14,939 bases of DNA, taken from a phage. The position numbers and the translations under genes were made by a program. The stretch lies in the sequence record PX306536.1; one strand, given 5' to 3'. Below the pieces are notes generated by a model that saw nothing but the letters and a program-made list of their open reading frames with translations, made no database searches and was not told the origin of the DNA. Below are positions 13,350-14,796 of this stretch, in pieces (position 1 is the stretch's first letter; each line of letters opens with the position of its first letter).

Positions 13350-13704
13350 ATGGGTTTTGTCTAACCTGAAAAGCGTGGCCGCTATTGCGGTTGCGCTTTT
13401 AATGCTTGCTAACTTTGGTTATTCAATTTTAGCGGCTAAAAAAATAACGGGGCTTCAAAATGAAATTAAAGCCATTGAAGAAAAGGCGACCGCAAACGCC
13501 AAAGCGGTGGAAGCCCTTCAATCAGTACGCGCAAGCGATGCGAAAGCAATCGCGGCAATTCAGGAAGGCCAGACAATTATCAGCGGCAAACTTAGCCGAA
13601 CAATTAGCGGATTGGGAAGGGTAAGCGATGAAACTAAACAAATTCTTGATAGTCCTATGCCTGCCGATGTTCGCGGCTTGTTCAACAACAGCCCCGAAAA
13701 TTGA
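13318..13704 (+). CDS. XXXVI: Rz-like inner-membrane spanin P36 (alternative start ATG 13342)
   Basis: N-terminal transmembrane helix followed by a coiled-coil-like periplasmic domain; overlaps the holin 3' end. Confidence 0.7.
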
Positions 13705-13900
13705 AACCGTTTATCTGGTTCCGCCGCCAAGCCTGCTAACTGAATGCGCCGCGCCTGTTTATCCGTTTATAACGTGGCGGGATTTGGTGGAAGCATACGC
13801 AAAAGAAAAGGCCGCAAGGGAATCATGCGGCCTTCAAATTCAAGAAATAAAAAACTGGTTTAAAGAAACAGTTCCAAGCGAAAGCCGAAAGTTTCAGTAA
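13628..13900 (+). CDS. XXXVII: Rz1-like outer-membrane lipoprotein spanin P37, 90 aa, overlapping the XXXVI 3' end in another frame
   Basis: Signal peptide with lipobox-like FAAC then Pro-rich VPPPS; own RBS GGGAAGGG (13612-13619). Confidence 0.7.
13801..13834 (-). terminator. Intrinsic terminator for the leftward early transcript, embedded in the XXXVII coding sequence
   Basis: 9-bp GC-rich stem AAGGCCGCA/TGCGGCCTT (13808-13816 and 13826-13834) with a 9-nt loop, followed on the minus strand by UUCUUUUG; lies 26 nt beyond the gene XIX stop. Confidence 0.55.
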
Positions 13901-14144
13901 TCAGCTTGCCAAGCCATTCAGCTTGCGTAACGCCAGCGGGCGTAAAACCGTTATCGGCAAACCGCAAATCAAAATGTTCGCTTACCACGCGGATAGCGCC
14001 CTTGACTTGATAAACAGCGGCAAGCGCGGTGCTGCCATACATAAGCGATGAAGCAAAAGGCGTTTGTCCAAAGTCGCCGGGAATGGACACAAAATAAAAT
14101 GCCTTCGGGCATTCAGGGCGGTTATTTTCGGTTTGCTTTTCCAT
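13860..14144 (-). CDS. XIX: ssDNA-binding protein P19, 94 aa
   Basis: Minus-strand ORF with RBS AAAGGTAAC upstream; second gene of the right early operon; 3' end overlaps XXXVII convergently. Confidence 0.75.
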
Positions 14145-14177
14145 GTTTGTTACCTTTGAATTTGAAGGGTAAAGAAT

Positions 14178-14204
14178 GGCCCCGCGCTGGTATCAGCCGG
14201 GGCC
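14178..14204 (-). other. GC-rich stem-loop in the XII-XIX intergenic region (possible attenuator or RNA stability element)
   Basis: GGCCCCG...CGGGGCC with extra inner pairing, roughly 11 bp with one bulge and a 4-nt loop; followed on the minus strand by AUUCUUUA. Confidence 0.4.
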
Positions 14205-14216
14205 GTGGCGCGTTGA

Positions 14217-14699
14217 TTAGGCTTCGGCCTTGGCCTTGGCCTTGGCGGCGGGCTTGGCTTCGCCAGCGGCTTCACCGGCAGCGGCAGGGGCAGGCAGCGC
14301 GGCCTTAACCTGATTGCGAAGCGCGGCCAGTTCATCCGATGCGGCGGGTTCAATCAGCGGCTTGACACCGTATTCATAACCAGTGTTGCCCTTTTCGGAA
14401 GGCTTGGCCCAAATTTCAACCGCAAAATCAACCGTGTTTTCACCATCCACGGCACCGGCAAGCAGGCTTTCCAGTACCTTCGGCAGAATCAGCGCACCGG
14501 AACGGAACACTTCACCAGTGGCGATATTCACGCCTTCAAATTCACCTTCAAACTTGATGAAGTCGCCAAAGGTGGATTGACCAACTTTCTTACCGCGAAC
14601 GCGGCCATAGATGGAAGCCAGCGCGGTATTTTCCTTGATGCTGTGCGGCTTCGGTTGTGCGCCAATGGTTTTCAGAGTCAGCTTGCTTACGATTTCCAT
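14217..14699 (-). CDS. XII: ssDNA-binding protein P12, 160 aa, with Ala/Lys-rich C-terminal tail
   Basis: 160-aa minus-strand ORF, first gene inside the right ITR; RBS AAAGGTAAC; tail AAKAKAKAEA encoded by a GGCCTT x3 repeat. Confidence 0.88.
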   Translation of the reverse strand: MEIVSKLTLKTIGAQPKPHSIKENTALASIYGRVRGKKVGQSTFGDFIKFEGEFEGVNIATGEVFRSGALILPKVLESLLAGAVDGENTVDFAVEIWAKPSEKGNTGYEYGVKPLIEPAASDELAALRNQVKAALPAPAAAGEAAGEAKPAAKAKAKAEA

Positions 14700-14768
14700 G
14701 ATAGTTACCTTTAAAGTTAAGTGGAAGTTATCGGCGGGGGTTTTGTGTTTGCCCTTTCGATGATTGAA

Positions 14769-14796
14769 ATTATACGCGCATTTTTAGGACGTGCAA
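14769..14796 (-). promoter_or_regulatory. Sigma70-like early promoter for the right early operon (XII-XIX)
   Basis: On the minus strand: TTGCAC (14791-14796), 16-nt spacer, consensus TATAAT (14769-14774), AT-rich upstream; about 70 nt upstream of the XII ATG. Confidence 0.6.

Follow-up and report, generated by a model that had tools for sequence, protein, structure and literature searches.

Genes XII and XIX of the phage studied here encode two ssDNA-binding proteins, P12 and P19, and a GC-rich hairpin lies in the spacer between them. P12 is essential, coats ssDNA as stoichiometric filaments and is toxic when overexpressed (PMC11886824; bioRxiv 10.64898/2026.09.28.754915), and P19 is dispensable (PMC11886824). 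The locus raises the question of whether the hairpin sets the output of the first gene relative to the second, and by which route. The window analyzed here is the complete genome of a PRD1-like alphatectivirus with a length of 14,939 bp; its right end, which carries both genes, shares ~98% identity with PRD1 and as much as 99% with recent isolates.

Organization of the right early operon

The ‘right early promoter’ annotated in M30146 (positions 145-172 of that record) was transferred to the window by means of the XII coordinates and corresponds to 14796..14769. This annotation places XII and XIX on one leftward early transcript, the start site of which would be near 14762 as judged from the promoter sequence. 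In the PRD1 annotation, the 72 nt between XII and XIX form the largest internal intergenic gap, the runner-up measuring 18 nt. A sequence scan revealed no promoter-like site between XII and XIX, so that XIX can be reached only by reading through the hairpin. The coordinates of all elements are compiled in Table 1.

The canonical intrinsic terminator of the operon is situated behind XIX, within the coding region of the Rz1-like spanin P37 on the opposite strand. It stands out as a peak of 95% identity in a polymorphic island, the most polymorphic part of the genome, and is found also in the asparagus clade, in the metagenomic contig L019 and in the more distant locus L020. Over 41 nt (13860-13900), XIX on the minus strand and the P37 gene on the plus strand run convergently into each other, which puts the end of each operon inside the coding sequence of the other. 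At the other side of the spacer, the C-terminal tail of P12 (14217-14290, minus strand) is a low-complexity stretch of Ala, Lys, Glu and Pro with GGCC-rich repeats, in which indels occur between phages.

Table 1. Positions of the elements of the right early operon in the window
Element	Position	Strand	Remarks
Right early promoter	14769..14796	-	TTGCAC-16 nt-TATAAT; hexamers read from the window sequence
Gene XII	14217..14699	-	P12, ssDNA-binding protein, 160 aa; from the ORF list; XII/P12 in PRD1 records, ~98% DNA identity
XII-XIX spacer	14145..14216	-	72 nt
Linker between XII stop and hairpin	14205..14216	-	12 nt; sole fast-evolving part of the spacer
Hairpin	14178..14204	-	outer stem 14198-14204/14178-14184, bulged G 14185, inner stem 14194-14197/14186-14189, loop 14190-14193
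Interrupted U-rich tail AUUCUUUA	14170..14177	-	5 U in 8 nt, first base A
XIX leader, G-poor	14145..14169	-	Shine-Dalgarno AAGGU 14152-14156, 7 nt to AUG
Gene XIX	13860..14144	-	P19, ssDNA-binding protein, 94 aa; from the ORF list and GenBank records
Canonical intrinsic terminator of the right early operon	13798..13834	-	perfect 9-bp stem AAGGCCGCA/UGCGGCCUU (13826-13834/13808-13816), then UUCUUUUGCG

A highly stable hairpin downstream of the XII stop codon

A preliminary description of this DNA had placed a GC-rich stem-loop in the XII-XIX spacer, and both the gene layout and RNA folding bear this out. The minus-strand RNA from 14204 to 14178, GGCCCCGGCUGAUACCAGCGCGGGGCC, folds into 7 bp, a one-base bulge (G 14185) and 4 bp closed by an AUAC loop; 10 of the 11 base pairs are G-C. 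The structure begins 12 nt past the stop codon of XII and ends 33 nt ahead of the start codon of XIX. The folding check that had been proposed gave a free energy of -22.0 kcal/mol for the hairpin (z = -4.67), a value equaled by none of 200 shuffled sequences, and -25.6 kcal/mol for the entire 72-nt spacer (z = -3.81). Every pair of the hairpin was predicted with a probability of at least 0.99 in a context of 301 nt.

When all 29,812 segments of 34 nt from both strands were folded, the hairpin site surpassed every other local fold of the genome in stability, the plus strand ranking first (-25.4) and the minus strand third (-23.7), compared with a genome-wide mean of -5.0 (sd 3.4). The arm pattern occurs once in the window, against 0.01 occurrences expected by chance. 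The hairpin escaped a generic terminator scan, most likely because the scan appears to count gapless stems only and the bulge interrupts the stem.

The slightly more stable plus-strand fold (-25.4) would be compatible with a role of the other strand or at the DNA level: a block to late plus-strand transcripts antisense to XIX and XII, a hairpin in the ssDNA displaced during protein-primed replication, or the mark of a recombination boundary. Moreover, the late genes converge on XIX with no plus-strand terminator evident after P37, and the BLASTN match to the asparagus clade breaks off at ~14174. We nevertheless rate this as the least probable of the explanations considered here. The plus-strand tail, GUGGCGCGUUGAUUA, has no U-tract, and it is not conserved because it coincides with the hypervariable linker that separates the XII stop from the hairpin; of the two flanks, the one downstream on the minus strand is conserved. 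A plus-strand terminator was rejected for these reasons. A recombination boundary at the hairpin was likewise rejected, since the identity profile describes a broad divergent island without an edge at that place. In the comparison with the asparagus-clade genomes L003-L007, this island runs across ~13690-14300, from the C-terminal part of P37 over XIX and the spacer into the low-complexity tail at the C-terminus of XII; within it the DNA is 40-60% identical to that of the asparagus clade, compared with 90-100% in the flanks.

The hairpin combines a strong stem with a borderline U-tract

In its stem the hairpin corresponds to an intrinsic terminator, being GC-rich, within the range of ~5-14 bp, provided with a short loop and located on the transcribed strand. 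From 14177 downward it is followed by AUUCUUUACCCUU. The short U-rich stretch that had been reported after the hairpin on the minus strand is therefore accurately described, with U at five of eight positions, although interruptions and an A at its first position keep it from being a clean U-tract. The ribosome-binding site of XIX, which had also been claimed downstream of this stretch, is present as a Shine-Dalgarno motif AAGGU at 14156..14152.

Where intrinsic terminators carry a U-tract of ~7-9 nt directly past the stem, the window phage has this interrupted tail. Terminator quality was ranked with a discriminant of the d'Aubenton-Carafa type, which combines hairpin energy and U-weight. The scores serve for ranking only: five classic terminators reached +7.5 to +52 and the post-XIX terminator +17, the XII-XIX hairpin of the window came just below the threshold at -5.8, and values of -31, -34 and -41 were obtained for the hairpin of L019 and for the second and first hairpins of the asparagus clade, respectively. 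Thus, the window element joins a stem of unusual strength to a U-tract of borderline quality.

Distant P12 homologues usually carry terminators at the equivalent site

A profile search recovered P12 homologues down to ~35% identity, on contigs of 14-20 kb. The loci were scanned with a narrower P12 alignment, the 29-sequence alignment being too diverse, and 19 distant loci including L019 were read. In 11 of these 19 (L020, L021, L024, L028, L030, L031, L032, L033, L035, L037, L038) a hairpin with a clear U-tract lies just past the P12 stop codon, four (L019, L022, L026, L029) have a hairpin without a U-tract and the remaining four are ambiguous. The canonical terminators of the 11 loci, which lie on uncultivated tectivirus-like contigs, resemble the XII-XIX hairpin in position (8 to ~30 nt past the P12 stop), strand and GC-rich stem. 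They differ from it, as does the post-XIX terminator, in their clean U-tracts, the XII-XIX tail being degraded. In the readable contexts they also differ in having no same-strand gene behind them, with the exception of L020, whereas XIX follows in the window. In L020, GCCCGCC...GGCGGGU is succeeded by UCUUUUC, and an unrelated gene on the same strand lies 58 nt past the P12 stop.

P12 closes its unit in most distant loci. In L022, L032, L033, L034 and L036 the P12 homologue comes directly after the DNA polymerase gene and no further gene is called before the contig ends, and in L031, L035, L037 and L038 it converges on lysis genes. No P19-like gene was found behind the P12 homologue in either of these two arrangements. 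Taken at the sequence level, the distant relatives point to a terminator as the probable origin of the XII-XIX hairpin. If this reading is correct, the locus would be an evolutionary example of a terminator that closes the P12 unit in many relatives and is weakened where a second gene sits behind it.

Sister lineages retain a hairpin without a U-tract

The PRD1 clade and the asparagus clade, the latter of which comprises the nine phages PRDasparagus, amber, obsidian, wine, fuchsia, avocado, canary, sepia and rose, share P12 at 92-95% identity and P19 at only 54-56%. The divergence of P19 is in line with a published account in which XIX and XXXVII stand out as the genes with the highest polymorphism (PMC11015023). 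The contig L019 is further away, with P12 at ~83-86% identity and, as the next gene, a P19 homologue at 32-37%. Despite this divergence of P19, a GC hairpin is kept 9-10 nt past the P12 stop in both the asparagus clade and L019.

The asparagus-clade spacer measures 89-93 nt and contains two GC hairpins, GGCCCGGCCUGCUGCCACGGCGGGCC and GCCCCGGUCAUAUUGGCCGGGGC. The first is followed by AUUCACAA, with 2 U in 8 nt, and then by the second hairpin, behind which a U-tract is missing as well. In L019 the hairpin is GGACCCUGUACUUUACGGGGUCC, 10 nt past the P12 stop, with the tail AUUCAAAA. Its third stem pair is A-U where the window phage has C-G, both sides having changed; since MAFFT could not align the three hairpin versions in structural register, this compensatory change was read by eye and is not a formal covariation count. 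The sequence CC-AUUC directly 3' of the stem is common to all three lineages (PRD1, asparagus, L019). The second asparagus hairpin (L003-L007, L041-L044) is perfectly conserved, has a 10-bp stem including G-U pairs and ends 6-8 nt ahead of the XIX Shine-Dalgarno sequence; its arms resemble those of the PRD1-type hairpin, and it may have arisen by duplication.

Accordingly, the U-tract is kept within the PRD1 clade and absent after the hairpin in the asparagus clade and L019. A function common to all lineages, if there is one, cannot rest on canonical intrinsic termination. Since the sister lineages keep hairpins without a U-tract, the main rival explanation, which corresponds to the second option of the preliminary description, is an element acting purely on RNA stability or processing: without any termination, an endonuclease such as RNase E would cut the unstructured XIX leader, the hairpin would block 3'->5' exonucleases, and the XII segment would outlive XIX. 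Such an element would account for the conserved hairpins without U-tract in L019 and in the asparagus clade, where two stand in tandem and are invariant in nine phages. It would also suit the shared CC-AUUC and the 33 nt between hairpin and XIX AUG, which contain only two G and are predicted to be mostly unpaired. However, the equivalent hairpin of most distant relatives has a clear U-tract, and the five U in eight positions are retained without change in 14 PRD1-clade sequences. On balance, a role in stability or processing alone appears rather unlikely.

Hairpin and XIX leader are under purifying selection

Sequence variability in the PRD1 clade was determined from 14 sequences, which were partly picked for spacers unlike that of the window. 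Only one of the 27 hairpin columns was variable, in addition to a single 1-nt indel, and the stretch from the hairpin to the XIX ATG varied in 4 of 33 columns; the linker between XII stop and hairpin varied in 6 of 12. At third-codon positions, 39 of 95 columns were variable in XIX and 35 of 118 in XII. The 5/60 variable columns of hairpin plus leader differ from these with Fisher p = 7e-6 (XIX) and 1e-3 (XII), values that are indicative only because columns were treated as independent in genomes that appear mosaic. In the nine asparagus-clade phages, the spacer had 1/89 variable columns compared with 12/97 (XIX) and 40/130 (XII) third positions, and here, too, the linker was the only variable stretch. 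These comparisons argue that the hairpin and the XIX leader are under purifying selection.

This constraint also bears on whether the hairpin is a functionless relic, the persisting remains of an ancestral terminator after decay. The loss of a proper U-tract in three lineages speaks for a relic, as do the canonical terminators kept by relatives in which P12 comes last. Against it, variability is far below that of synonymous sites in two clades, a gap of 72-93 nt is kept in an otherwise gap-free genome, and the hairpin is extremely stable. We regard a mere relic as very improbable.

The XIX leader and control of translation

The translation initiation regions of XII and XIX are near-identical, with the common core AAAGGUAAC-N4-AUGGAAA. 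Each core is preceded by a G-free stretch of ~22 nt, in XII within 14700-14740 and in XIX within 14145-14177 (both minus strand). The similarity suggests a ribosome-binding module that was duplicated or arose by convergence. With initiation regions so much alike, any difference between P12 and P19 would most simply be set at the level of mRNA.

Alternatively, the element could control the translation of XIX, either with the hairpin and a weak pairing limiting ribosome access or as an operator in which P12 or P19 binds hairpin and leader and represses XIX translation. A stable structure is indeed followed by a conserved, G-poor and unstructured leader containing the ribosome-binding site. In the minimum free energy structure of the spacer, UUACC (14172-14168) forms 5 bp with GGUAA across the XIX Shine-Dalgarno sequence, and the second asparagus hairpin ends close to this motif. 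The pairing contributes only ~3.6 kcal/mol, though, and the asparagus clade has not kept it; with its end 21 nt upstream of the XIX Shine-Dalgarno sequence, the hairpin does not occlude this motif; and the XII leader has an equal ribosome-binding core without a comparable hairpin. Translational control of XIX is improbable in our view.

In the Salmonella phage PKJ.Ry.20.3 (L012), the sequence ahead of the XIX start, GGATACAATC, is closer to GGATACCATC of the asparagus clade than to GGTAACAAAC of the PRD1 clade, which hints at a recombination junction inside the XIX leader of this phage. A further terminator-like hairpin, GAAUGCCCGAAGGCAUUU followed by UAUUUUGUGU, was noticed within XIX at 14097-14114 (minus strand), ~30 nt past the start codon; on the plus strand its loop reads C(UUCG)G. 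It was rejected as a terminator, as it has no conserved counterpart in the asparagus clade and is probably a chance by-product of the FYFV codons.

A leaky terminator and/or 3' stabilizer as the favored reading

The preliminary description had proposed that the hairpin attenuates read-through or stabilizes the 3' end of a XII-only mRNA. In favor of this are its location on the sense strand of the early operon, the purifying selection, the terminators of relatives and the missing promoter between the genes; the termination part is weakened by a U-tract that is borderline in the window and missing from the asparagus clade and L019. We consider it somewhat better than even (probability roughly 0.55) that, owing to the hairpin, XII RNA exceeds XIX RNA through partial termination at AUUCUUUA, through 3'-end protection of XII-only RNA, or through both.

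In this scheme, the right early transcript would pass from the promoter (~14796-14769) through XII, the hairpin and XIX to the terminator at ~13800. The hairpin of the window phage would most likely be a weak, leaky intrinsic terminator composed of a strong GC stem and the imperfect U-tract AUUCUUUA. Some RNA polymerases would stop there and yield an RNA of about 0.6 kb that carries XII only; the others would continue past XIX as far as the efficient terminator at 13798-13834 and produce an RNA of ~0.96 kb. The stem would also shield the 3' end of the XII-only RNA from 3'->5' exonucleases, whether this RNA came from termination or from cleavage in the A/U/C-rich leader. We infer that termination or stabilization takes place and that P12 would hence outnumber P19. 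An excess of P12 over P19 fits the biology of the two proteins, one being essential, filament-forming and toxic in excess and the other dispensable.

If true, the element would set the output of the essential, dose-sensitive P12 relative to the dispensable P19 from one promoter. This could be useful for PRD1-based orthogonal replication systems, where the toxicity of P12 hampers cloning (bioRxiv 10.64898/2026.09.28.754915). The hairpin would be an ordinary kind of control element and leaves the understanding of phage gene regulation unchanged.

Relation to known regulatory elements

Partial intrinsic terminators inside operons include the internal terminator of rpsU-dnaG-rpoD, the rplL-rpoB attenuator and Te of phage T7. 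The XII-XIX element shares with them a GC-rich stem-loop just past a stop codon on the sense strand, a U-containing tail and a promoterless downstream gene reached by read-through, and graded expression, proximal above distal, would be expected. As a candidate terminator, it differs in that the PRD1-type tail AUUCUUUA is interrupted, starts with A and has no counterpart in the sister lineages, and in its lower score.

Intercistronic hairpins that stabilize mRNA are represented by the REP elements between malE and malF and by the hairpins of the Rhodobacter puf operon. The XII-XIX hairpin is likewise a stable stem-loop between the cistrons of one transcription unit; it would protect the upstream segment and leave the upstream product in excess, and such hairpins do not need a U-tract, which matches the situation in the asparagus clade and L019. 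Unlike REP elements, it is single-copy and not a dispersed repeat, and many relatives have a genuine terminator at this site. A REP element proper was rejected on account of the single occurrence in the window, and an RNase III processing site, which takes ~20 bp or more of dsRNA, because the stem has only 11 bp.

For an ssDNA-binding protein, a well-known precedent is the operator of T4 gene 32, where gp32 represses translation on its own mRNA at a pseudoknot in its own 5' leader. The PRD1-type arrangement is compatible with such an operator in that it involves an ssDNA-binding product and a structured element followed by an unstructured, G-poor leader including the ribosome-binding site. It is dissimilar in consisting of a simple hairpin and in standing ahead of a different gene. 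By analogy, the hairpin or hairpins together with the invariant G-poor leader might form an operator independent of any U-tract, to which excess P12 or P19 would bind cooperatively and shut off XIX translation; we judge such an operator to be highly doubtful. Were it true, feedback of the gene 32 kind would set the ratio of two ssDNA-binding proteins in protein-primed replication.

The hairpin is not annotated as a terminator or stem-loop in M30146, AY848689, NC_001421 or AY441783. Within the full texts searched, no description of it or of the 3' ends of PRD1 early transcripts came up; an earlier description is possible. Among the Rfam 15 covariance models none matched the hairpin at E <= 1. 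Sub-threshold matches fell only on the post-XIX terminator (suhB/mmgR with 26 bits, ctRNA_p42d with 20 bits), which explains these similarities to sRNA families.
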